Positions 2,168 through 19,539 of a stretch of 64,000 bases of DNA are shown one piece after another. The stretch is from NCBI GenBank assembly GCA_018239895.1, contig JAFEGL010000045.1:72656-136655 (forward strand), written 5' to 3'. Source of the stretch: Verrucomicrobiota bacterium. GTDB lineage: Bacteria > Chlamydiota > Chlamydiia > Chlamydiales > SM23-39. The position numbers and the translations under genes were made by a program. Below the pieces are notes generated by a model. It was not told where the DNA came from and searched no databases. It was given only the letters and a program-made list of their open reading frames with translations. The number at the start of each line of letters is the position of its first letter. The first letter of the stretch is position 1.

Positions 2168-2653
2168 ATGAATAGTTTTCCGATTACATCTGAAGATCAT
2201 TTTAGGGCAGTGAAGGCTTGGTTTAAAAACTCGGATGCAGCTCCGTTTTTTGAAAATATTGAGGAGATCAAGGTGGAAAATACATTCCCAAACGTGGTGA
2301 ATATTGTCTGCGGGGGAAGGTCCCGCTTCTTTACAGTTTCCACTGAGCTAGCTAATAAAGTTGCGAACTCCATTTTTGTGCAAATTCCCGTTACACCCGA
2401 TGAGGGAGCTTTTCTTGAAGAAGTTAGAACTCAGCTAGATGGCCGCATTCAGTACATATGTGATGTTCCAGGTATGGCTATAGACAAAACGAAGATGATA
2501 GCTGCAAGTCAACCCCGGTTTATCCGATCGTTTGAAGTCCCAAGTCGGATGATAGGTTATAAGAGATTGGCAATAGATGTAAGGGTAGATCCAGACTTAC
2601 GGAGGGCAGGGGGTTGGGTCGGAACAGGATTGAACGTTGCTAATTGTGCCTGA
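2168..2653 (+). CDS. hypothetical protein
   Basis: 161-aa ORF with no motif. Its 3' end overlaps the convergent autotransporter gene by 57 nt. Confidence 0.4.
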   Translation: MNSFPITSEDHFRAVKAWFKNSDAAPFFENIEEIKVENTFPNVVNIVCGGRSRFFTVSTELANKVANSIFVQIPVTPDEGAFLEEVRTQLDGRIQYICDVPGMAIDKTKMIAASQPRFIRSFEVPSRMIGYKRLAIDVRVDPDLRRAGGWVGTGLNVANCA

Positions 2654-5077
2654 GGGTGCAATCATCCCTGTGTTGATGCTGTCGACGTTGCAGGGGCTTA
2701 GGTTGAAGACCCCAGCTCCCGGATTAGTGAGTGAGTATACTGGGTCTAGATTGCCGCTGTTTCCAGATAGTCTCAAACAAACATTGGGGTTTCCGCCGGT
2801 AAAGAGGCCGATGGCAACGCCTGGAGTTGCATCATTTGAGAGATCGTTGTTTATCACTGAAGAGGTCAGGTTAACGTAGGTATCCAGACTGATCCCTGAT
2901 CCGGCATTGGCGTTCAAATTTTGGCAATTGGTAATTTCGTTGCCTGTAATATTAGCGGTCATATTTGTAAATTCCGAGGAAAAGAACAACATTCCTGTCC
3001 CTTCGCAATTGTCGATTGTGTTGTTTTTGGCTGTAAAATTGAGCGTTGAGCTTCCCTGAGCAATCGCTATTGCACTTTGGCTGTTTGTGATGTTTCTGAT
3101 AGTGTTGTTGCTGATCGTTATATTTGCTGTCTGAAAGGGTGTTCCGCCTGTCACAGAGATTCCGTTGTCATTCAATTGGTTGATTGTGTTGTTGGTTGCA
3201 GTTAGGGTAAAGGTGTCGACCTGGGTTCCGCTGGTTATGGCGGAGCCTCCATTGTTGGACATAGTGTTGCCGGAGGCTGAAATTTCAAAAGTTGAGATTT
3301 TTCCAGATGGATCTACGTAAAATGAATTCGATATGTTCCCTGAGATTGTATTGCTCTCCATGACCACCGCACAATGGTTGGTTGTACCGGTTTGAAGGAT
3401 GACTATACTCGATCCAAGATTGGCTCCTATTGCTCCTGCCCGGTTATTTGTAATGGTATTATTCAATAGGGTGAGGTCGGCATTGGCCAGGCTGGTGAAG
3501 TCGAACCGGATGCTGCCGGTGAAATTGTCGTCAAAGAGGTTGTTGTTGATTTGAGCCGTGAGCGTGTTGTTATTGGATACTAATCTGATTGGCATCTCGG
3601 ATGAGGAGGTTTGGCCTTGGAAGGTGTTGCTAGAACAGACTACGTTAGATGCCCCATTGAGATTCAAAACGATCCCGTTGACGTTGTTCAAGAACTGGTT
3701 GTTCGTAATGGATGCTGCAGCATCGCCAGAGAAAGTGGCTTGAATAGGGAAAGTGTTGATGTTTGTGAATGTGCATGATGAGACGTTTAAGCTTTGAGCA
3801 TCGGTCCCAATGATGCCGTCGTTGAGTGTGGAGGTGACGGTGAAGCCGCTGATGGCGTTGTTGGTCGCTAGCGTGATCGCATCGCCGTTCGTAGAGACGT
3901 CGGTGTTTGTAATGGTGGGGGAGGTACTGCTTTGCGCGGGGATGGAGATAGTGCCTGCCGTGGTTTGGATCAGGTGGGCGATTCCGGAGCCCCAGAGTTT
4001 TTGGTTGGCTTTAAGAACAATCCCCGAATCCATCCCTGCCGTTGTCCCATCGCCAGGGAATACATAGATGATATCGTTGGGCGAGGAGGTGGCTTCCACT
4101 TGCGCGAAGCTGTGGTAGGGGCTGGCGTAGGTGCCGTTTGAACTGCCCGTGTTGTTGACGAACACAAAGAGGTAGGGGAGTCCCGTTGCCGGATCGATGG
4201 CAACCGATTTTTTCTTCGTTTTGTCGATGACGATGATCTCTTGTCTACCTACAGGCTGAAGCATCCGGCTATTGAGCGTGTTGGCTAGCTTGCAAGTCCG
4301 ATTTTCTTTCTTAATTTTAGATTTGGGGCCGAAGGAGAAGGAGAGGCCGATCTGCCCTTGGAATTTGTTCTGAAAGGTTCTGTCGTACGAGTCGCTGATT
4401 TCTAGGGTCAAAATGTCCTTGAAGACGCCCAAAAGTCTCGCTTTGCCGCCCCAGGTAACTGGGTCGATTTCCCCGATGTAGTAGTAGGGGCCTGCGGCTG
4501 CGTAGAAATCGCAGAGCCCAGGTTTTCCAAAATGGAAACCGAATTCGGCATCGGCCCCTTTCATCGCCGATTTGCTCTTTTGCGAAATATACATGTAATT
4601 GCCCGAAAAGTAGGCGAAGGTGGGGTCGTAAGGGCCGCTGGTCTTTGCGCCGACGGGCAGATAGCCATTGATCCGGAAATCGAAGAGCTGGCCTAGTGTT
4701 TCAAGGCCCACTCCGATCTGATTCGATTGGAAATGGCCCGCATTCCTGTAGTCGTAGTAGGTGTTGATGCCGTAGGCTCGGTTTCCCCATAACGCTCTCA
4801 GGCCGAGGCCAGCGTTGGCGGCCCACTTTCCGTTGTCGAAAATGTGGCCTCTCGCATCGAAAAAGGGGGTGACTACCCATTGGCTGGGATCTGAAGCGAG
4901 AAAGACCTCGAGAGTGGAATAGCCCGTTTCGTAGCCGATACCGCCCCTCTCAATGTGGCGGATAGAGGTCCGGAAATGTTGCTGACCGTCTGGGCAGCTT
5001 TCTGCTTTTGCAGGATCGACGAGAAAATCGCTTACAGTAAGAGCTGTGGCTAAAATAACTGAAAGAAACATGTACAC
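2597..5077 (-). CDS. inverse autotransporter (type Ve, intimin/invasin-like N-terminal barrel) with a parallel beta-helix passenger
   Basis: 826 aa. Residues ~40-260 fit the inverse-autotransporter barrel pattern (FFDARGHIFDNGKWAANAGLGLR..YGINTYYDYR..IGVGLE..FRINGYLP). The C-terminal ~550 aa are Asn/Thr/Gly-rich repeats (ISNNTIRNITNS, AKNNTIDNCEGTG, ITGNEITNC) typical of right-handed beta-helix (PbH1) domains. Confidence 0.8.
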   Translation of the reverse strand: MYMFLSVILATALTVSDFLVDPAKAESCPDGQQHFRTSIRHIERGGIGYETGYSTLEVFLASDPSQWVVTPFFDARGHIFDNGKWAANAGLGLRALWGNRAYGINTYYDYRNAGHFQSNQIGVGLETLGQLFDFRINGYLPVGAKTSGPYDPTFAYFSGNYMYISQKSKSAMKGADAEFGFHFGKPGLCDFYAAAGPYYYIGEIDPVTWGGKARLLGVFKDILTLEISDSYDRTFQNKFQGQIGLSFSFGPKSKIKKENRTCKLANTLNSRMLQPVGRQEIIVIDKTKKKSVAIDPATGLPYLFVFVNNTGSSNGTYASPYHSFAQVEATSSPNDIIYVFPGDGTTAGMDSGIVLKANQKLWGSGIAHLIQTTAGTISIPAQSSTSPTITNTDVSTNGDAITLATNNAISGFTVTSTLNDGIIGTDAQSLNVSSCTFTNINTFPIQATFSGDAAASITNNQFLNNVNGIVLNLNGASNVVCSSNTFQGQTSSSEMPIRLVSNNNTLTAQINNNLFDDNFTGSIRFDFTSLANADLTLLNNTITNNRAGAIGANLGSSIVILQTGTTNHCAVVMESNTISGNISNSFYVDPSGKISTFEISASGNTMSNNGGSAITSGTQVDTFTLTATNNTINQLNDNGISVTGGTPFQTANITISNNTIRNITNSQSAIAIAQGSSTLNFTAKNNTIDNCEGTGMLFFSSEFTNMTANITGNEITNCQNLNANAGSGISLDTYVNLTSSVINNDLSNDATPGVAIGLFTGGNPNVCLRLSGNSGNLDPVYSLTNPGAGVFNLSPCNVDSINTGMIAPSGTISNVQSCSDPTPCPP

Positions 5078-12612: not shown

Positions 12613-13671
12613 ATGAAGACACATGGATATGGAGCTTTAAACGCCGATTCCCCTTTAAAACCGTTTTCGTTCGAGCGCCGATCGGTGGGCCCCCATGATG
12701 TTCATATCGAGATCCTCTACTGCGGGATTTGCCACTCGGACATCCACACAGCCCGCAATGAATGGCACGACACCATTTATCCGGCCGTTCTCGGTCACGA
12801 AATTCTCGGTGTGGTGAAACAGGTCGGCCGCGAAGTAAAGCGATTCCACCCGGGCGATCATGTCATGGTCGGCTGCCTGGTCGACTCGTGCAGAACCTGT
12901 CCAAGCTGCAAACAGGGCTTGGAACAATACTGCGAGGGTGGTTTTACCCTGACTTACAATAGCCCCGATCCGCATATGAAAGGGAAACCGACGTACGGGG
13001 GATATTCGAAGCAGATCGTCGTCGATGAAAAGTTCACGTTCCAAGTGCCGAAAAAATTTAAGAAGGAGCAGTTTGCTTCTTTAGCTCCCCTCGTTTGTGC
13101 GGGGATCACCACCTACTCTCCGTTGCGCCACTGGAAGGTGGGCAAGGGGAGCCGAGTGGGGATTGTCGGTCTCGGCGGGCTAGGCCATATGGCGATCAAG
13201 TTGGCCCATGCGATGGGAGCCGAAGTCACCCTTCTCACCACTTCGCCTGGGAAAATGAAAGATGGGAAAAAACTCGGCGCCGACCATGCTGTCTTATCGA
13301 CAGAGCAGGGGGCGATGGAAAAGCTGGGCGGCACATTTGATTTTATCCTCAACACGGTAGCCGCATCCCACAACCTCGAACCTTTTTTTCAATTACTCAA
13401 ACGGGATGGGACGATGTGCCTTGTGGGTCTCCCCGATGTTCCCCACCCTCCGTTGCCCGTATGGGAGTTGACTCTCAAGCGGAGACAGCTATCTGGCTCC
13501 TTCATTGGCGGGATTGCGGAGACTCAAGAGATGCTCAATTTCTGCGCTGAGCACAATGTCACCTCCGACATCGAACTGGTCTCGATCGATCAGATCAATG
13601 AGGCCTATGAGCGGATGTTGAAAAATGACGTTAAATACCGCTTCGTGATCGATATGTCATCTCTCAATTAG
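12613..13671 (+). CDS. zinc-dependent NAD(P) alcohol dehydrogenase (cinnamyl-alcohol dehydrogenase/YahK-like)
   Basis: GICHSDIH, GHEILGVV, the structural-zinc Cys cluster CRTCPSCKQGLEQYC, and GLGGLGHMAIK. Confidence 0.85.
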   Translation: MKTHGYGALNADSPLKPFSFERRSVGPHDVHIEILYCGICHSDIHTARNEWHDTIYPAVLGHEILGVVKQVGREVKRFHPGDHVMVGCLVDSCRTCPSCKQGLEQYCEGGFTLTYNSPDPHMKGKPTYGGYSKQIVVDEKFTFQVPKKFKKEQFASLAPLVCAGITTYSPLRHWKVGKGSRVGIVGLGGLGHMAIKLAHAMGAEVTLLTTSPGKMKDGKKLGADHAVLSTEQGAMEKLGGTFDFILNTVAASHNLEPFFQLLKRDGTMCLVGLPDVPHPPLPVWELTLKRRQLSGSFIGGIAETQEMLNFCAEHNVTSDIELVSIDQINEAYERMLKNDVKYRFVIDMSSLN

Positions 13672-14797
13672 GGCGCCAAGCTTTTTGGAGCGCCTCTAAA
13701 CCTTTGACGATGTCCTCTTCGCTTTCGGTGAAGGCGAAGCGGGCGTAGCCCTCGGTCCCAAATCCGATGCCGGGGACGGCGGCCACGCGGGCCTCGTCGA
13801 GGAGCTTTTCGCAGGTTTTGATCGAATCGGCGCCGATCTTGGAGAAGAAATAGAGAGCGGCGGGAGCCGGCTTGATGTGGGTCGAAAAGAGCCGGTTGAA
13901 GGTCGAGTAGAAAAGGGTGCGGCGGTGGCCCATCGCTTTTCTGACATAACCTGAAACTTCATCGGCGTGGAGGAGCGCCCCGACGGCCGCTTTTTGGCTT
14001 GTAAAAGAAGTTCCTGTGGTGCTCTGGCTTTGGAGCGCGCTGATGTTGGAGATCACGGGCGCAGGGGCAAAGGCGAAACCGACGCGCCAGCCAGCCATGG
14101 CGAAATTTTTAGAGCAGCTCTCGATGACGACAACTCGGGAGCGGTGTTCGGGAAACGAGGCGCACGAGACGAATTCGCCCCCATCGAAAGTCAGTTCGCT
14201 GTAGACTTCGTCGGAGATGATGGTCAAGTTGGCCTCAGCAGCGACGTCGAGGATGGCGCCGAGCTCTTCGCGAGTGTACAAGATGCCGGTCGGGTTGCCT
14301 GCGTTGTTGAGCAGGAGGACTCGGGTCTTTGGAGTGATGTGAGCTTTGAGGAGGCTCGGAGTTAATTTCCATCCCCCTTCGAAAGTCGTCGGGACGATCA
14401 CGGGGATGCCCGAGGCGATCCGGACCATTTCAGGATAGGAGACCCAGTAGGGAGCGGGAACGAGGGCCTCTTCGCCCTGTTCGATGAAGAGCTGAAGCGC
14501 TGCGTAGATTCCGAATTTCCCCCCGCAGGTCACGATCGTCTGCTCGACGGTGTACTGCGATTGGTAGCGGCGGTTCATCCACTCGGCAGCTAACTTTCTC
14601 AAGTCCATGATCCCTGAAATCGGCGCGTAGGGGCACATCTTCTCTTTGAGCACCTGGGCCGCCGCATCGAGGATAGCCGGGTGATTTGGGAGGATCGGGT
14701 CTCCGACTCCAAAATTGTAAACTTTAATCCCTTCTTTCGAAAGGAGATGGGCTTTTGCGCTGATCGCGACGGTGGGAGAGGGCTTTAATTGCTTCAT
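13664..14797 (-). CDS. class I/II PLP aminotransferase (aspartate/prephenate/aromatic type), last gene of the aromatic operon
   Basis: SCSKNFAMAGWRVG (PLP-lysine motif) and NNAGNPTG. A 4-nt overlap with the tyrA stop implies translational coupling. Confidence 0.8.
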   Translation of the reverse strand: MKQLKPSPTVAISAKAHLLSKEGIKVYNFGVGDPILPNHPAILDAAAQVLKEKMCPYAPISGIMDLRKLAAEWMNRRYQSQYTVEQTIVTCGGKFGIYAALQLFIEQGEEALVPAPYWVSYPEMVRIASGIPVIVPTTFEGGWKLTPSLLKAHITPKTRVLLLNNAGNPTGILYTREELGAILDVAAEANLTIISDEVYSELTFDGGEFVSCASFPEHRSRVVVIESCSKNFAMAGWRVGFAFAPAPVISNISALQSQSTTGTSFTSQKAAVGALLHADEVSGYVRKAMGHRRTLFYSTFNRLFSTHIKPAPAALYFFSKIGADSIKTCEKLLDEARVAAVPGIGFGTEGYARFAFTESEEDIVKGLEALQKAWRPN

Positions 14798-15486
14798 ATT
14801 TGGTTCAAAAACTCGATGAATTTCTTCAAGGATACCTCGATGTTGTCTCCATTGTAAACTTTTATTTCTGCATGGAGGGCGGGATTATCCTTGGCGAGGC
14901 GGGTCATCGATTTGAATCCGGGGCCGGCAATCTCGAGACTTTTAGGATCTTCGTGGGTGACGAACTCAAGAAGAGCTTTTGAGAGGAGATAGGGCATGTG
15001 GGAGATCAGAGCCACTTGCTGGTCATGTGTCTTTGCATCGAGCCGTTTCGGATGAGCGCCCAGTAGAGTGGCGATCTCTTCGACCGCTTTTAAAGCTTTT
15101 TCGGTGTTTTTTTTGTGAGGAGTCACAACCCAAGTTGCCCCCTGAAAAAGGGAGGCTTCGCTGTTAGCGAAGCCGCTCATCTCCTTGCCAGCCATCGGAT
15201 GGGTGGCGACAAACTCTAAGTTGCCTTGGGTCCACTCTTCAAACCGTTCGGCAATTACCTCTTTTACGCTCCCGACATCGAAAACGACCAGAGGGTGCTT
15301 TGTTTTGATTTTCGCGCCAATTTCTAAAATTGCCGAAATGGGGACTGCGAGGATGAGGGCATCGATCTCGTCGAGTCTGTCAAGAATGTCATCGCCGTCG
15401 ATGACCTCTTTTTTCCCTTCCAGCCCTTTCAGGATCGATCCTCCGATAAGGCCCAGGCCGAGAATGCCGATTTTACGAAAGGACAT
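14794..15486 (-). CDS. tyrA: prephenate/arogenate dehydrogenase
   Basis: The start is chosen at MSFRKIGILGLGLIGGS (Rossmann motif at the N-terminus). The HPMAG motif is present. Sits within the pheA-tyrA-aminotransferase operon. Confidence 0.8.
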   Translation of the reverse strand: MSFRKIGILGLGLIGGSILKGLEGKKEVIDGDDILDRLDEIDALILAVPISAILEIGAKIKTKHPLVVFDVGSVKEVIAERFEEWTQGNLEFVATHPMAGKEMSGFANSEASLFQGATWVVTPHKKNTEKALKAVEEIATLLGAHPKRLDAKTHDQQVALISHMPYLLSKALLEFVTHEDPKSLEIAGPGFKSMTRLAKDNPALHAEIKVYNGDNIEVSLKKFIEFLNQI

Positions 15487-16234
15487 CGTACTTTCCAAAA
15501 ACTTTAAGCGAGTTTGTCTTCTTCTGCAGCTCTTCGAGAGCCGCGCCATCGATCGATTCAAGATCGACGTAAAACATATATTCAAACGGTTTCCCGATGA
15601 TAGGCCTCGATACGATATAGGTCAAATTGGCTCCAGCAAGGTGGGTCAATACATCGGCCAAACTTCCGGGGCGGTGGTCCAGTGTAAAGCAGAGAGAGGC
15701 TTTTTTCCCCTCGACAGCTCTTTTGCCGATGAGAAAAAAACGGGTATAATTCTCCTCATGGTCTTGGATGTTTTGGGCGAGAATTTCCAACCCGTAGATT
15801 TTTGCCGCAGAGCTGTGGGCAATCGCCGCTGTGGAAAGATCTTTCAAATTGGCTGCAGCTCCCGCCGTGTCGAAGTAGGAAATCGCCTCAAGATGGGGAT
15901 TTTCCGCCAAAAAGCGGGTGCATTGCATCAGCGCTTTCGGATGGGACTTTACTCTCTGCGGCTCTGCGCCAGGCAGGGCCATGAGGCTATGTTCGATCTT
16001 TGTCTGGGTCATGCCGACAATTTTCAAATCTCCCTGGTTCAAAAGATCGATCGTCTCGTAAATTGTCCCTGCGAGGGTATTTTCAATTGGCATCAGAGCG
16101 AAGTCGGCCTCTCCCTTCTCTACCGCTTCATAGACGGCCTGGAAGGTGGGAAGTCCCAGCAATTGAGAGGAGAACCGTTTCGCTGTGAGGTGGCTGAAAG
16201 ACCCTTCGATCCCTTGGTAGGCGATCCGGTTCAT
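15473..16234 (-). CDS. pheA: prephenate dehydratase with a C-terminal ACT domain
   Basis: MNRIAYQGIEGSFSH N-terminus, TRFFLIG, and the ACT region SLCFTLDHRPGSLADVL...TYIVSRP. Confidence 0.85.
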   Translation of the reverse strand: MNRIAYQGIEGSFSHLTAKRFSSQLLGLPTFQAVYEAVEKGEADFALMPIENTLAGTIYETIDLLNQGDLKIVGMTQTKIEHSLMALPGAEPQRVKSHPKALMQCTRFLAENPHLEAISYFDTAGAAANLKDLSTAAIAHSSAAKIYGLEILAQNIQDHEENYTRFFLIGKRAVEGKKASLCFTLDHRPGSLADVLTHLAGANLTYIVSRPIIGKPFEYMFYVDLESIDGAALEELQKKTNSLKVFGKYDVLS

Positions 16235-16497
16235 TCGACCGCCTCCATCTCGATGCGGGTATATTCGAGCAAGAGCTGGAAGATCTCTTCGACGATCGGC
16301 GCGCTGAGGTTCTGCTCTTTTGCTAACCGCCGGATCTCTTCATGGATCAACGCCTCCCGCTCAGCATCCAAAATCGGCAATTTCCGATCTTTCTTGATTC
16401 GGGCGATCTCTCGAGCTACTTTGAGCCGCTCTCCCAAAAGATGGACAATCTCCCGGTTGATTTTGTCGATCTTGGTTCGCAAAACTTCTAAAGTCAT
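16231..16497 (-). CDS. chorismate mutase (AroQ class, monofunctional)
   Basis: 88 aa with LRTKIDKINREIVHLLGERLKVAREIARIKK. 4-nt overlaps with both neighbours. Confidence 0.8.
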   Translation of the reverse strand: MTLEVLRTKIDKINREIVHLLGERLKVAREIARIKKDRKLPILDAEREALIHEEIRRLAKEQNLSAPIVEEIFQLLLEYTRIEMEAVE

Positions 16498-17507
16498 AAA
16501 GATCTCCCAATGGCTTCTGCGACTTTTCTCAAGTCGGGAACAAAATTTGTGAAATCTTGGGGCAGCAACGACTGCTTTCCGTCCGATTTCGCATTTTTCG
16601 GATCGTTGTGCACTTCAATCAAGAGTCCGTCGGCTCCCGCAGCGATCGCAGCTTTTGAAAGGGCGGGGATGAGATCCGTTCTTCCGGCGGCGTGGCTCGG
16701 GTCGACGATGACCGGCAAGTGGGTGAGCTGCTTGACGACCGGGATGCTGCTCAAATCGAGCGTATTCCGGGTCGATGTCTCGTAGGTCCGGATGCCCCGT
16801 TCGCACAAGATCACGTCGGGATTTCCGTGAGCCATGATGTATTCGGCGCTTAAAAGCCACTCTTCGATCGTGGCCGATAGGCCTCTTTTCAAAATAACCG
16901 GCTTGCCCGATTTGCCGACAGCTTTCAATAGATCGAAGTTCTGCATGTTGCGGGCTCCGATCTGGAGGATGTCGACGTGCTGGGCGATCATCTCCACATC
17001 TTGGATGTTCATTACCTCAGTGACAGTGGCCATCTGGTGTTTTTTCTGAGCGCCCGAGTGAAGTTTCAACCCCTCTTCTCCCATCCCTTGGAAGCTGTAA
17101 GGGGAGCTTCGGGGTTTGAAGGCAGAGCCGCGCATGACCGCGACGCCCGCCTTTTTCAATTCGACGGCGATCAAATCGAGCTGTTCTTGGCTTTCGATCG
17201 AGCAGGGGCCCGCCATAAGGACGACCTTGTCGCCTCCGATCTCGACGCCGTTGGCGTGGATCACAGTTTTTTCCGGCTTGGCCGCTAAGCTTGCCAATTT
17301 GAATGGGGTTGAAATGCGGGTCGCTTTCTCTACAGCAGGGAGTTTCCTGAGTTCGAGAGCGATCTCTTCCGAGGGGTTCCCCTCTAAGCCGATGACGGTC
17401 TGCGTCCTATTTTCGCAGATCCTATGACCTAGACGGTGGTGATCCAGCAATTGTTGGACCGAATGAATTTCTGCGGCCGAAGCCGATTTCTTAATTGTAA
17501 TTAACAT
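16494..17507 (-). CDS. aroF: 3-deoxy-7-phosphoheptulonate (DAHP) synthase, type I-beta, with an N-terminal regulatory domain
   Basis: MAGPCSIES, ILKRG, VDPSHA and LLIEVH motifs. An N-terminal extension of about 70 aa resembles the ferredoxin-like regulatory domain of Thermotoga-type enzymes. Confidence 0.85.
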   Translation of the reverse strand: MLITIKKSASAAEIHSVQQLLDHHRLGHRICENRTQTVIGLEGNPSEEIALELRKLPAVEKATRISTPFKLASLAAKPEKTVIHANGVEIGGDKVVLMAGPCSIESQEQLDLIAVELKKAGVAVMRGSAFKPRSSPYSFQGMGEEGLKLHSGAQKKHQMATVTEVMNIQDVEMIAQHVDILQIGARNMQNFDLLKAVGKSGKPVILKRGLSATIEEWLLSAEYIMAHGNPDVILCERGIRTYETSTRNTLDLSSIPVVKQLTHLPVIVDPSHAAGRTDLIPALSKAAIAAGADGLLIEVHNDPKNAKSDGKQSLLPQDFTNFVPDLRKVAEAIGRSL

Positions 17508-17559
17508 ATACCTATTCCTTTTTGGTATTTTGGGGGGAAATTAAAATCTAGTAGGGAAA

Positions 17560-17667
17560 TTAATTGTTTATGGCTGGGGAGCCATAAAAGGAATAGCTAT
17601 AAGAATAGAAACAGCCGGGAGCGACTTGGGAAAAAGAGGAAGATCTGGTCGTTCTTTCGTGTTTCAT
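17560..17667 (-). CDS. candidate leader peptide (35 aa) rich in Phe/Tyr: MKHERTTRSSSFSQVAPGCFYSYSYSFYGSPAINN
   Basis: Read by hand from the minus strand. It is not in the ORF track because it is shorter than 60 aa. It sits between a near-consensus promoter and aroF. 6 of the 9 codons FYSYSYSFY are Phe/Tyr. There is no SD, and the ATG lies only about 10 nt after the -10 box. Confidence 0.35.
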   Translation of the reverse strand: MKHERTTRSSSFSQVAPGCFYSYSYSFYGSPAINN

Positions 17668-17676
17668 ACAGGATAG

Positions 17677-17705
17677 ATTATACCAGATCGGGGATTGTTT
17701 GTCAG
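17677..17705 (-). promoter_or_regulatory. sigma-70/66-type promoter CTGACA-17 nt-TATAAT upstream of the aromatic operon
   Basis: On the minus strand the -35 CTGACA is at 17705-17700 and the -10 TATAAT at 17682-17677, with a 17-nt spacer. The nearest downstream gene is aroF. Confidence 0.5.
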
Positions 17706-17742
17706 GGATTATTTGAATTGGAAAAGCATAACATATTGACTA

Positions 17743-18030
17743 TCAGTCTGATATGTAATAATTGTCGTTTACCTGGGCAAGGCGGAGGACGGGCCCCTTC
17801 GCACAATACACATTTAGGTAGGATCCATCGAACTCCAGGCGGAGAGTTTCGCCGCTCTGGTACCGTCCGAAGCCCCATTTCACCTCGAGGGTCATCCCAT
17901 TGCTCAGTTCCACGAGGTCCTCGTGTTCCAGCCTATTTGGGTATGACTCAGACCGGACCACCTGAACGTAGAGTTCGTTGGATGGCCGGGCTGCTTGCTG
18001 AGGGAAGTTGGTCTGAATGACAATCGTCAT
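17743..18030 (-). CDS. hypothetical protein (95 aa)
   Basis: ORF overlaps the upstream 126-aa ORF by 4 nt (ATGA). No motif recognised. Confidence 0.55.
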   Translation of the reverse strand: MTIVIQTNFPQQAARPSNELYVQVVRSESYPNRLEHEDLVELSNGMTLEVKWGFGRYQSGETLRLEFDGSYLNVYCAKGPVLRLAQVNDNYYISD

Positions 18031-18407
18031 GCTTGCATCTTATTGAAGGCGTCTTGGTAAGTTCCCAAATCAACCACGATTTTGATGATCCGTTTGGCTT
18101 GGTCCAAACCTTGTTTGGGAGTGCCAAGCATAACGCACTGTTCAAAAAGAATCTGTTTTTGAAGATCCAAGAGGGCGGAATTCATATTGTTTAATTTTGT
18201 GATTTGAGTCATTTTCTGACTCAAATTGCTACGGACGGTCTCTATTTCTACGTTGGGAGAAGATCGGATTTGATCCGATGCCGCGAGCAGCTTTGTTGCC
18301 GTTTCGAGAAGGGCTGTTGTTTTTTCGGTTACCTTGGCTGTGAAGGCTTCAACAGTTCTGTAGAGTTTTGATAAATCTATACTATCCGTAATAAGTCTTC
18401 CTGACAT
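18027..18407 (-). CDS. hypothetical alpha-helical protein (126 aa)
   Basis: Helix-favouring composition. Divergent from the LuxR-type regulator gene across a 60-nt AT-rich spacer. Confidence 0.55.
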   Translation of the reverse strand: MSGRLITDSIDLSKLYRTVEAFTAKVTEKTTALLETATKLLAASDQIRSSPNVEIETVRSNLSQKMTQITKLNNMNSALLDLQKQILFEQCVMLGTPKQGLDQAKRIIKIVVDLGTYQDAFNKMQA

Positions 18408-18467
18408 ATTTATTTCCTTTTTTTTGCATCTATTATAGGATTTCTTCCAGATTTTTTACAGGCTTTT

Positions 18468-19286
18468 ATGTTGAACTGGAAAGAGATCGTTCAAAATTAT
18501 ATTAGCAAGTATTCCAACCTGATTCGGGCGGCGACCAAGCCCCTAAGAGACCGTCTTGGGCTTAAGTATTTTACGTATCACAAGATTGATAAGCAGGGGA
18601 AATACACCGTCTTAGTCGATCGCCCCGATTGGGCCGAGCACTATGTCGGGGAAAAATATTACTTGGTAGACCCCTACTTGAGACACCCCGATGTCTACCG
18701 ATCGGGTGTTTGCATGATCGGCTGCCATGGCTCGGAAGAATTTAAAGAGAAGCTGCATGGGGCAGCCAAAAAGTTCGATCTCGAGCAAAACGTTTTATTC
18801 ATCGATCGGTCGGAAGATTGCGTGGAATTCTACGGCTATTCGGGGAGCAAACGGGAATCGACATTAGATCGGGCCTATCTCAACCATCCGTGGATCTTCA
18901 AAGCTTTTGCGGGCTTTTTCAAGCGGGAGCTGGGGGCGATCTTGAGGCAGATGGAGGGAGAGGCAGGCTCTCTCATCGAATTGAAGGGGGGCGATTTTTT
19001 CTGTCCCGAGCCGATCAACCCCTCGTTGGACGACGAATTCGAAGCCTACTTAAAAGAGATCGGACAGGGAGAAGATCTTGAAAAGATCAAGCTTTTATCT
19101 CCAAGAGAGAAGCAGTGCATCCGGCTTTTTGCCGATGGGAAATCGGCCAAAAAGACGGGCGTGGACTTGGGGCTTTCTCCGAGGACAGTCGAGTCCTATT
19201 TTGAAAATATGAAAAACAAGCTCTCCTGCCACTCGAAGCAAGAGATCCTCGCTAGGGTAAAGCCCTTTTTGGACTTGTGGCCCTGA
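18468..19286 (+). CDS. LuxR-family transcription regulator (autoinducer-binding-like N-terminal domain plus C-terminal HTH); a LuxR solo
   Basis: C-terminus LSPREKQCIRLFADGKSAKKTGVDLGLSPRTVESYFENMKNKL (GerE/LuxR HTH). N-terminus FTYHKID...PDWAEHYVGEKYYLVDPY has the W-x3-Y-x8-DP spacing of AHL-receptor pockets. Confidence 0.8.
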   Translation: MLNWKEIVQNYISKYSNLIRAATKPLRDRLGLKYFTYHKIDKQGKYTVLVDRPDWAEHYVGEKYYLVDPYLRHPDVYRSGVCMIGCHGSEEFKEKLHGAAKKFDLEQNVLFIDRSEDCVEFYGYSGSKRESTLDRAYLNHPWIFKAFAGFFKRELGAILRQMEGEAGSLIELKGGDFFCPEPINPSLDDEFEAYLKEIGQGEDLEKIKLLSPREKQCIRLFADGKSAKKTGVDLGLSPRTVESYFENMKNKLSCHSKQEILARVKPFLDLWP

Positions 19287-19460
19287 GGCTCATTATTTAA
19301 AACGGCATGAAAGATGATCAGCGCAGAGGTAGAAGGAGTGTAGAAAGACGCAGAGAAAAAATATCCGGCAGGGATCCCAGAATTTTTTTCTCTGCGTCTC
19401 TCTCTACTCCTTCTATCTCTGCGCTGATCATCTTTCGTGTCGTCTTAGAGAATAAGCCTC
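19285..19460. repeat. ~176-bp imperfect palindromic element (arms of ~75 bp); a solo related arm occurs at 52366-52415
   Basis: The left arm gaggctcattat...gaaagatgatcagcgcagaggtagaaggagtgtagaaagacgcagagaaaaaa mirrors tttttttctctgcgtctctctctactccttctatctctgcgctgatcatctttc...agaataagcctc. It begins at the LuxR stop codon. Confidence 0.8.
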
Positions 19461-19539
19461 AGGCGCTACCGTAATTCTTACGGTGATTTGAAATTACGGC
19501 TCTTTTGGATAATCGCCCTCTCTAACAAGGAGAGAGGCG

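Follow-up and report, generated by a model that had tools for sequence, protein, structure and literature searches.

Can members of the Chlamydiota adjust the synthesis of aromatic amino acids through a short leader peptide? Gene regulation in this phylum is poorly understood, and the sole leader peptide proposed so far (C. trachomatis trpL) is doubtful. The question is raised by a stretch of 64,000 nucleotides (nt), here called the window, from a Verrucomicrobiota bacterium placed by GTDB in the Chlamydiota (assembly GCA_018239895.1, contig JAFEGL010000045.1, positions 72,656 to 136,655). On its minus strand, an operon for Phe and Tyr synthesis begins with aroF, the gene of a 3-deoxy-D-arabino-heptulosonate 7-phosphate (DAHP) synthase (DAHPS). 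An earlier note, made from the letters alone, had read the region upstream as a translational attenuator: a promoter, a small open reading frame (ORF) rich in Phe and Tyr codons, and pairing of these codons with the aroF Shine-Dalgarno (SD) sequence. Comparison with relatives revealed 27 further Chlamydiota loci that carry the same element in front of the DAHP-synthase operon, at 47-80% DAHPS identity and with unrelated upstream neighbours. Judged from the compared sequences, it is almost certainly a genuine conserved cis-regulatory leader. Folding models indicate that it probably acts as a ribosome-mediated translational attenuator sensing charged tRNA-Phe and tRNA-Tyr.

Conservation of promoter and leader ORF

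Relatives were fetched by exact-protein look-up and by a metagenome scan with the clade peptide signature R[GA]SA[YF]KPR. This signature was checked to be absent from an outgroup of 80 DAHPS loci of other phyla (0.5 Mb), which came from a scan with the full DAHPS alignment. Loci are cited by L numbers. DAHPS homologues with 60-80% identity were Chlamydiae, Chlamydiia or Simkania wherever the source names them.

The promoter described in the earlier note, CTGACA-17-TATAAT, is present and matches the consensus in 11 of 12 positions. It has an extended -10 element and was the top promoter-like site in a scan of 6.5 kb (13000-19500). Promoters with at least 10 of 12 matches were found at the same place in 24 out of 26 related loci, 15 of them with the TG extension. 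The leader ATG lies 9 nt past the -10 box (TATAAT), and in ten loci this gap measures 6-10 nt. The leader mRNA would accordingly be leaderless or carry a 5' untranslated region of ~2 nt. The earlier note had listed a nearly leaderless ORF without SD as a caveat; both features are present, but the near-leaderless start is, on comparison of the loci, a conserved trait of the family.

As in leader-peptide attenuation generally, the ORF lies between the promoter (17705-17677) and aroF (17507) on the same strand and contains a cluster of end-product codons. Its 35 codons were found where the earlier note had placed them; codons 20-28 (17610-17584) read TTC TAT TCT TAT AGC TAT TCC TTT TAT, six out of nine being Phe or Tyr (6-8 of 10 in relatives). 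The related leader ORFs comprise 28-47 codons and end in a Phe/Tyr run (e.g. MRKKATTTSSVRQPLARCYFYSFSYSFYFGA and MSNNARTTSILSAQVAPAYSFYFFYFGA, each up to the stop codon). C-termini such as YSFSYSFYFGA, YSFYFFYFGA and SFYYFYFGA, each followed by the stop codon, differ by synonymous TTT/TTC, TAT/TAC and TCC/TCT changes. A Phe/Tyr frame with an ATG 26-35 codons upstream of the hairpin P2 (see below) was present in 23 of the 24 complete loci, L170 having GTG instead. Differences in leader codons 2-18 amount to 105, 130 and 134 at the three codon positions, without a bias towards the third. Because these codons differ equally at all three positions, the open frame and the regulatory codons appear to be under selection and the peptide itself not. 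A functional small protein was rejected on the same ground.

In a public sequencing run (X2), a near-identical strain has A instead of G at plus-strand position 17623. On the minus strand, a codon of the leader ORF thereby changes from GTC to GTT, which is synonymous. The strain also differs at the spacer positions 17536 and 17528, which lie outside all helices.

The family includes the cultivable Simkania negevensis. At L165:1335-1466 (FR872582, ~1,238,900-1,239,130), a gene call of 43 amino acids (aa) is the family leader, ending in SGSFYYFYFGA at the stop codon. It has a perfect TTGACA-17-TATAAT promoter and precedes an operon of class IV aminotransferase, DAHPS, chorismate mutase (CM), prephenate dehydratase (PDT), 3-dehydroquinate synthase (DHQS) and 5-enolpyruvylshikimate-3-phosphate synthase (EPSPS).

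Fold of the leader in the window

The perfect complementarity between regulatory codons and aroF SD could be reproduced: CTATTCCTTTT (17596-17586) pairs over 11 nt with AAAAGGAATAG (17522-17512), which includes the SD. The position of AAGGAA needed correction by 2 nt, as it occupies -13 to -8 (17520-17515) and not 6-11 nt before the ATG. Folding of 17672-17490 on the minus strand with RNAfold gave -33.2 kcal/mol (z = -3.5), and none of 200 shuffles was as good. In the minimum free energy (MFE) structure, helix P1 comprises 14 bp around one G.G mismatch (17601-17598:17510-17507 and 17596-17587:17521-17512) and occludes the aroF SD together with the A of the aroF AUG. The hairpin at 17586-17569 had been regarded as a competitor of the anti-SD. 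It is instead a conserved hairpin, P2, which coexists with P1 in both the MFE and the centroid structures, stacks on it and has at most U17586 in common with it. With a third hairpin, P3, the modelled fold is a three-way junction that is closed by P1 and has P2 and P3 as arms (Table 1).

In relatives, P2 has the form UUUGGCGC-nnn-GCGCCAAA directly after the Phe/Tyr run; two compensatory pairs distinguish the window from this form. The P2 loop contains the leader stop codon in 17 of 25 loci; the ORF of the window reads through P2, and its stop codon (17562-17560) is located in the 5' arm of P3. P3 is formed in relatives by other U-rich:A-rich stems (UUUGUUUUU:AAAAACAAA, UUUAUUUUU:AAAAAUAAA and UAACUU:AAGUUA) with the same loop. 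This loop, CUAUCAGAU, is near-invariant in alignments A3 and A5 and, among 171 loci, almost confined to these leaders. A search for a pairing partner of this loop, which covered the leader, the SD region and the early part of aroF, yielded only weak and inconsistent duplexes. An 8-bp match of the loop to the promoter spacer (17689-17678) was rejected, as it is upstream of the expected transcription start site (TSS) and was not seen in relatives. Some related loci carry an extra inserted hairpin in the junction.

The spacer following P2 is strongly depleted of G. The window has a single G in 49 nt; over 26 loci, the first 45 nt after P2 contain 22.6% C and 5.9% G. Judging by composition only, the spacer may allow Rho to load or reflect the avoidance of purine decoys for the anti-SD. 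The MFE structure additionally pairs the leader start region UGUA..AACA (17660-17670) with the first aroF codons UGUU..UACA (17496-17506, minus strand), which may be incidental.

Covariation and covariance model

P1 and P2 were predicted unprompted by RNAalifold from ten MAFFT-aligned leaders. In the MAFFT alignment A3, 89% of the cells pair compared to 38-53% with slid partners, and five pairs are changed on both sides. The covariation score was 0.193 versus 0.115 in shuffles (0/500). In an alignment of 21 sequences to the model, which leans towards the structure, 92% of the cells pair (40-60% when slid) and both-side changes occur in 9 of 17 pairs (0/500); for P2, 97.6% of the cells are paired in these 21 sequences. 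MAFFT alignment A4 was excluded because the window was 3 nt out of register, and P3 was left out of the covariance model and of the covariation counts for want of consistent alignment columns.

An alignment-free comparison gave the same picture. Cognate anti-SD/SD duplexes reached -15.0 kcal/mol on average and non-cognate ones -11.6 kcal/mol, with 0 of 20000 permutations as good; the cognate duplex of L170 had -16.2 kcal/mol. P1 appears in the individual MFE structures of 17 out of 19 sequences, including those with spacers of 181-217 nt. L088 forms a perfect 12-bp helix over 181 nt, L168 pairs over 217 nt and L166 forms an 18-bp helix to AAAAUAAAGAGAGUAGAA. Compensation is illustrated by CUAUUCC:GGAAUAG in the window, UUAUUUC:GGAAUAA in L083 and UCUUAUCC:GGUUAAGA in L094. 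Conservation in relatives had been named in the earlier note as a check of its reading; the Phe/Tyr ORF, the promoter and the SD:anti-SD helix indeed recur at 60-80% DAHPS identity with compensatory changes.

The covariance model R1 was built from 11 relatives, the window being excluded. It matched the 64-kb window only once on both strands, at the leader (Table 1). R1 also matched nine other non-training loci at E<1e-4 and, more weakly, further ones including Simkania. There was no match of R1 in the 80 outgroup loci. Rfam 15 gave no relevant match at E<=10 in 17000-18500, Phe_leader included, and no gathering-level match in 20 related loci.

Proposed mechanism

The model starts from what is observed, namely the sequence features, their conservation, the covariation of P1 and P2 and the thermodynamic consistency of the fold. 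A ribosome was mimicked by barring the pairing of ~30 nt around its A site, with the mean unpaired probability of the SD AAGGAAUAG as readout. This probability was 0.03 for the free leader, 0.25 with the ribosome at F20, 0.83-0.86 with the ribosome at Y23, Y25, F27 or Y28, and 0.001 with the ribosome at the leader stop codon. The stall geometry proposed in the earlier note thus agrees with constraint folding: a ribosome on Y23-Y28 is predicted to undo the blocking structure and free the SD, one at the stop codon is not. As in ermC-type attenuation, the aroF SD is predicted to pair with a segment of the leader ORF (codons 23-28) that the stall site masks.

In this model, the strong promoter would yield a transcript starting at or a few nt from the leader AUG. 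The Phe/Tyr codons, located in the last third of the ORF and pyrimidine-rich, would themselves be the anti-SD. In the free RNA, P1 would hide the aroF SD and start codon and prevent initiation at aroF. When charged tRNA-Phe or tRNA-Tyr is scarce, the leader ribosome would dwell on codons 23-28, cover the anti-SD and melt P2, leaving the aroF SD single-stranded for a second ribosome. With a good supply, the ribosome would reach the stop codon and depart, and P1 would re-form. The G-poor untranslated spacer may in addition let Rho terminate in the OFF state, as far as its composition suggests. This logic suits an operon whose end products are Phe and Tyr. Predictions of the model are the position of the TSS, translation of the leader, stalling at Phe/Tyr codons, and in which direction and how strongly the operon would respond.

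Stalling of the TnaC type, with arrest by free Phe or Tyr, was also considered and rejected, since induction of the operon would then coincide with an abundance of the amino acids. It is further disfavoured as the residues after Gly follow the hairpin sequence and not a peptide motif.

Weighing of the model and of alternatives

Several findings weigh against translational attenuation or limit its reach. The leader ORF lacks an SD. Public runs with the window sequence yielded low-depth contigs that span the promoter and are DNA-like, and one soil metatranscriptome contig covers only aroF -7 to +244 of the relative L085. U-rich Phe/Tyr codons complement A/G-rich SD regions by composition. Measured against the background of its own locus, P1 pairing ranks in the top 0.2-5% for most of the window's subclade, but only at 8-15% for L083, L111, L101 and L168 and at 35% for L169 (the value of L170 was disregarded in this test, as P2 was mislocated there). 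It is unremarkable in the deep-branching L092, L097, L123 and L131 and in Simkania L165. Direct pairing of codons and SD is, on this comparison, a property of the window's subclade. In the deep members, the SD seems to be controlled via other intermediate hairpins, as far as the predicted folds indicate: in L097 the anti-SD lies after P2, and in L123 the SD is within a local hairpin. In Simkania, a relay is possible in which early Phe/Tyr codons pair with the 3' arm of the hairpin CCUC-GAAAA-GAGG, the 5' arm of which could otherwise bind the SD. A simple attenuator would need neither a near-invariant P3 loop nor so strictly conserved a P2. A U-rich tract soon after P2 occurs in about half of the relatives and not in the window, and there may be some transcriptional component in the relatives that have it.

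That an AT-rich intergenic region contains a small ORF, a promoter-like site and complementarity together by chance would be compatible with the window-only statistics, which are modest. At least six Phe/Tyr within nine codons occur in 3 of 414 small ORFs; of 74 gene starts, that of aroF is the second best at pairing to the anti-SD segment, and ~2% of random 31-nt windows are equal. These tails of ~1-2% per feature are outweighed by the comparative evidence, which is decisive: the element was encountered again, with covariation, in 27 independent loci, and R1 detects the window with an E value of 1.8e-10 although it was built without it. Coincidence can be considered refuted, its probability being practically negligible. 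Another alternative is an output mainly at the level of transcription. After termination of leader translation, Rho could load on the G-poor spacer between P2 and the SD and terminate before or within aroF, P1 only keeping aroF untranslated. Control of Rho access by leader ORFs is an established mechanism (tnaC, mgtL). Rho-dependent termination has been reported in Chlamydia, according to a mention in PMC7755916, and the G-depletion of the spacer is strong. On the other hand, the spacer consists mostly of A and U and is partly folded into P3, and decoy avoidance explains its composition equally well. An upstream-stalled ribosome would not cover the site, so that relief would still need the opening of P1. 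Mainly Rho-dependent control, which would be compatible with translational attenuation, is unlikely.

Classical transcription attenuation, with P2 and the downstream U residues as an intrinsic terminator that is blocked by a ribosome stalled just 5', is very unlikely. In a lenient scan, 17588-17567, i.e. P2, was the sole terminator-like site; L098, L111, L083 and L169 have 6-7 U in 9 nt within 0-3 nt of P2; and Phe/Tyr/Trp leaders before DAHPS genes in Acholeplasma, Acidobacteria and Syntrophaceae have clear terminators. P2 of the window, however, has only three GC pairs and is followed by AACAAUUAAUUU (tail CAAUUAAUUU). No convincing intrinsic terminator with a U-tract was found in the window, as the earlier note had already remarked, and no antiterminator alternative either. 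About half of the family is devoid of a U-tract (L082, L085, L094, L166, L168 and Simkania), and where a U-rich stretch follows P2, this stretch forms the 5' arm of P3, in covariation with the A-rich 3' arm. Moreover, a ribosome at a stop codon in the P2 loop would block P2 as well, which would defeat the logic. Another reading takes the three-way junction chiefly as the place where a factor acting in trans, be it a protein, a tRNA or a small ligand, would bind, with the ORF secondary or only unfolding the junction. The P3 loop, near-invariant without an RNA partner, and a P2 sequence conserved far beyond the needs of a hairpin speak in its favour. Against it, the open frame, the start and stop position and the Phe/Tyr content are conserved while the remaining peptide drifts, the codon identity matches the pathway end products, and no Rfam family matches; this reading is very unlikely. 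An extension of translational attenuation, in which the junction (P3 loop and P2 with the stop codon in its loop) offers a second sensing surface for a protein, uncharged tRNA or metabolite, or controls termination and recycling of the leader ribosome, would make the element a hybrid of upstream ORF (uORF) and structured-RNA switch. To this, only a rather small chance can be given. Translational attenuation remains the probable reading.

Operon and neighbouring genes

The genes predicted downstream in the earlier note, for DAHP synthase, CM, PDT, prephenate dehydrogenase (PDH) and aminotransferase, were confirmed by Pfam (Table 1), and the same gene order was found in L081-L083, L166 and L167-L170. 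The longest PDH ORF (14794-15585, minus strand) overlaps the PDT gene (15473-16234, minus strand) by 113 nt. Because PDH of relatives has 231-236 aa and overlaps PDT by ~14 nt, the true start is probably some 80-100 nt downstream of 15585.

Table 1. Features of the aroF leader and operon in the window (SD, Shine-Dalgarno sequence; MFE, minimum free energy).
Feature	Position	Strand	Details
Sigma-70/66-type promoter	17677..17705	-	CTGACA 17705-17700, 17-nt spacer, TG 17685-17684, TATAAT 17682-17677
Leader ORF	17560..17667	-	35 codons + TAA; encodes MKHERTTRSSSFSQVAPGCFYSYSYSFYGSPAINN
Regulatory codon run F20 Y21 S22 Y23 S24 Y25 S26 F27 Y28	17584..17610	-	Phe/Tyr 6/9
R1 match	17499..17616	-	74 bits, E 1.8e-10, model positions 1-125, full length
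Anti-SD (P1 5' strand)	17586..17601	-	Within codons Y23-Y28; from MFE pair list, RNAalifold, covariation, cognate test
P1 3' strand AAAAGGAAUAG-G-UAUA	17507..17522	-	Holds aroF SD AAGGAA (17520-17515) and A of AUG
P2 hairpin UAUGGCU-CCCC-AGCCAUA	17569..17586	-	Directly 3' of regulatory codons
P3 hairpin AAUUAA:UUAAUU	17539..17565	-	5' arm contains leader stop codon; loop is conserved motif
P3 loop motif CUACUAGAU	17546..17554	-	Family consensus CUAUCAGAU
G-depleted spacer	17523..17568	-	C 27%, G 2% (26% G window-wide)
Operon	13664..17507	-	DAHP synthase, chorismate mutase, prephenate dehydratase, prephenate dehydrogenase, aminotransferase
aroF, type I-beta DAHP synthase	17507-16494	-	Pfam: DAHP_synth_1, N-terminal ferredoxin-like FXD domain
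Chorismate mutase	16497-16231	-	Pfam: CM_2
Prephenate dehydratase	16234-15473	-	Pfam: PDT
Prephenate dehydrogenase	ends 14794, listed TTG start 15585	-	Pfam: PDH
Aminotransferase, class I/II	14797-13664	-	Pfam

The divergent neighbour at 18468-19286 (plus strand) encodes a LuxR-type regulator, unusual in Chlamydiota, that has a GerE helix-turn-helix and a partial autoinducer-binding domain. Between this gene and the leader promoter, the small ORFs 18407-18027 and 18030-17743 (minus strand) gave no Pfam match.

L137 possesses two DAHPS paralogues (2186-3226 and 4955 to the end). Only the second carries a Phe/Tyr leader (MKTKAEDQKPILAKGTASAAASAFVYSYSFYFGA up to the stop codon, TATAAT-6 nt-ATG), which was found as an R1 match; the first follows a tryptophan-synthase-alpha-like ORF directly and has no leader. 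This arrangement suggests a division of labour between a Trp-linked and a Phe/Tyr-linked isoenzyme. Chlamydiota-like DAHPS genes (67-71% identical) without a leader, directly behind another gene, were seen in L090/L171, L095, L117 and L091. In L090/L171 the gene sits behind a tRNA U5-methyltransferase, and no alignment was obtained for the N-terminal regulatory domain of L095 and L117. In these lineages the leader was presumably lost, or the gene moved.

Significance and comparison with known systems

The leader constitutes a covariation-supported family of cis-regulatory RNA and uORF across environmental chlamydiae, for which Simkania negevensis is a ready experimental system. It predicts that these intracellular bacteria sense the charging of their own tRNA-Phe and tRNA-Tyr to choose between making aromatic amino acids and taking them from the host. 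The design is compact, as the regulatory codons would be the anti-SD, the mRNA would often be leaderless and no terminator is involved. R1 can be used for annotating such leaders in metagenome-assembled genomes. Full-text literature searches gave no description of a Phe/Tyr leader in Chlamydiota, and the family and its direct translational design appear to be undescribed. The statement of the earlier note that leader-peptide control was undescribed in Chlamydiota can be kept only with a qualification, since C. trachomatis and C. felis have annotated, putative TrpL leader peptides (Merino and Yanofsky 2005; PMC3937554; PMC7755916). Within this phylum, these too are predicted leader-peptide attenuators, and their pathway likewise concerns an aromatic amino acid. 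TrpL of C. trachomatis is long, has no consecutive Trp codons, is unvalidated and was judged a poor attenuator (PMC7755916); the aroF element, in contrast, is conserved over at least 28 loci with covariation.

Among the phyla compared, aromatic leader peptides seem to be common upstream of type I-beta DAHP synthase genes, and would control transcription in some phyla and translation in others. Short Phe/Tyr/Trp-rich ORFs (e.g. MFQTFAYYYYYQM and MFQTHASSFTYFSYRYWSFSPIR, each up to the stop codon) were seen 90-150 nt upstream of such genes in Acholeplasma (L022, L038), Acidobacteria (L042, L054, L024, L052) and Deltaproteobacteria/Syntrophaceae (L063, L072). Clear terminators of hairpin and U-run follow them in L022, L042 and L063. 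Going by these sequences, aromatic leader control of DAHPS seems to be mostly transcriptional outside the Chlamydiota. In L130, L150, L102, L147 and similar loci on metagenomic contigs, with ~50% identical DAHPS (N-terminus MIIVLKP...), leaders such as MQNISSSSRSNSFSFSYFYFWQ (to the stop codon) finish with the hairpin UUUCUGGC-AGUAA-GCCAGA, whose loop contains the stop codon. P2 in Chlamydiota has the same design, although R1 does not match these loci. To judge by them, DAHPS leaders of other uncultured phyla have the core design in common with the Chlamydiota family: aromatic codons and, after them, a hairpin that exposes the stop codon in its loop.

A survey of 26 genomes by the Breaker laboratory described the motif uORFC-13-1 only upstream of Acholeplasma aroF (3-deoxy-7-phosphoheptulonate synthase), as a uORF with promoter elements and Phe codons directly before an intrinsic terminator stem (PMC8632094). 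It resembles the window element in being a uORF with promoter and Phe codons before aroF that was found by comparative analysis. It differs in adjoining a terminator, as seen in Acholeplasma oculi L022, and belongs to a different phylum. The Acholeplasma leaders end in YYYFYHM or YYYYYQM at the stop codon, followed by the terminator. Neither R1 nor Rfam 15 matches L022 and L038, and these leaders can be regarded as analogous to, and not necessarily homologous with, the Chlamydiota family. In C. glutamicum, the leader peptide aroR with Phe-Tyr-Phe codons precedes the aroF operon and is reported to act by transcription attenuation; Phe limitation stalls the ribosome and thereby raises expression (Neshat et al. 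2014, according to the summary in PMC11802643). Like the window element, aroR is a short Phe/Tyr leader ORF directly before a DAHP-synthase operon. The window element, unlike this actinobacterial transcription attenuator, has no terminator and sequesters the SD by the regulatory codons, and both are unrelated in sequence and structure.

With E. coli pheL-pheA and pheM-pheST, the element shares a leader peptide rich in the end-product codon, on which the ribosome senses charged tRNA. However, pheL and pheM use a terminator/antiterminator switch, respond to Phe only and belong to gamma-proteobacteria. With the translational attenuation of ermC and cat, it shares a leader-stalled ribosome that opens an SD-hiding helix without a terminator. 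In those systems, a drug and a specific nascent peptide are the signal; here, it is presumably the supply of charged tRNA-Phe and tRNA-Tyr, and the anti-SD is within the hungry codons themselves. The peptide upstream of the Phe/Tyr run is not conserved, and inducer-dependent arrest programmed by the nascent peptide, as in ermC, is not expected. By analogy, the element, which belongs to no curated family, would work like ermC-type attenuation but be driven by amino-acid supply as in pheL.

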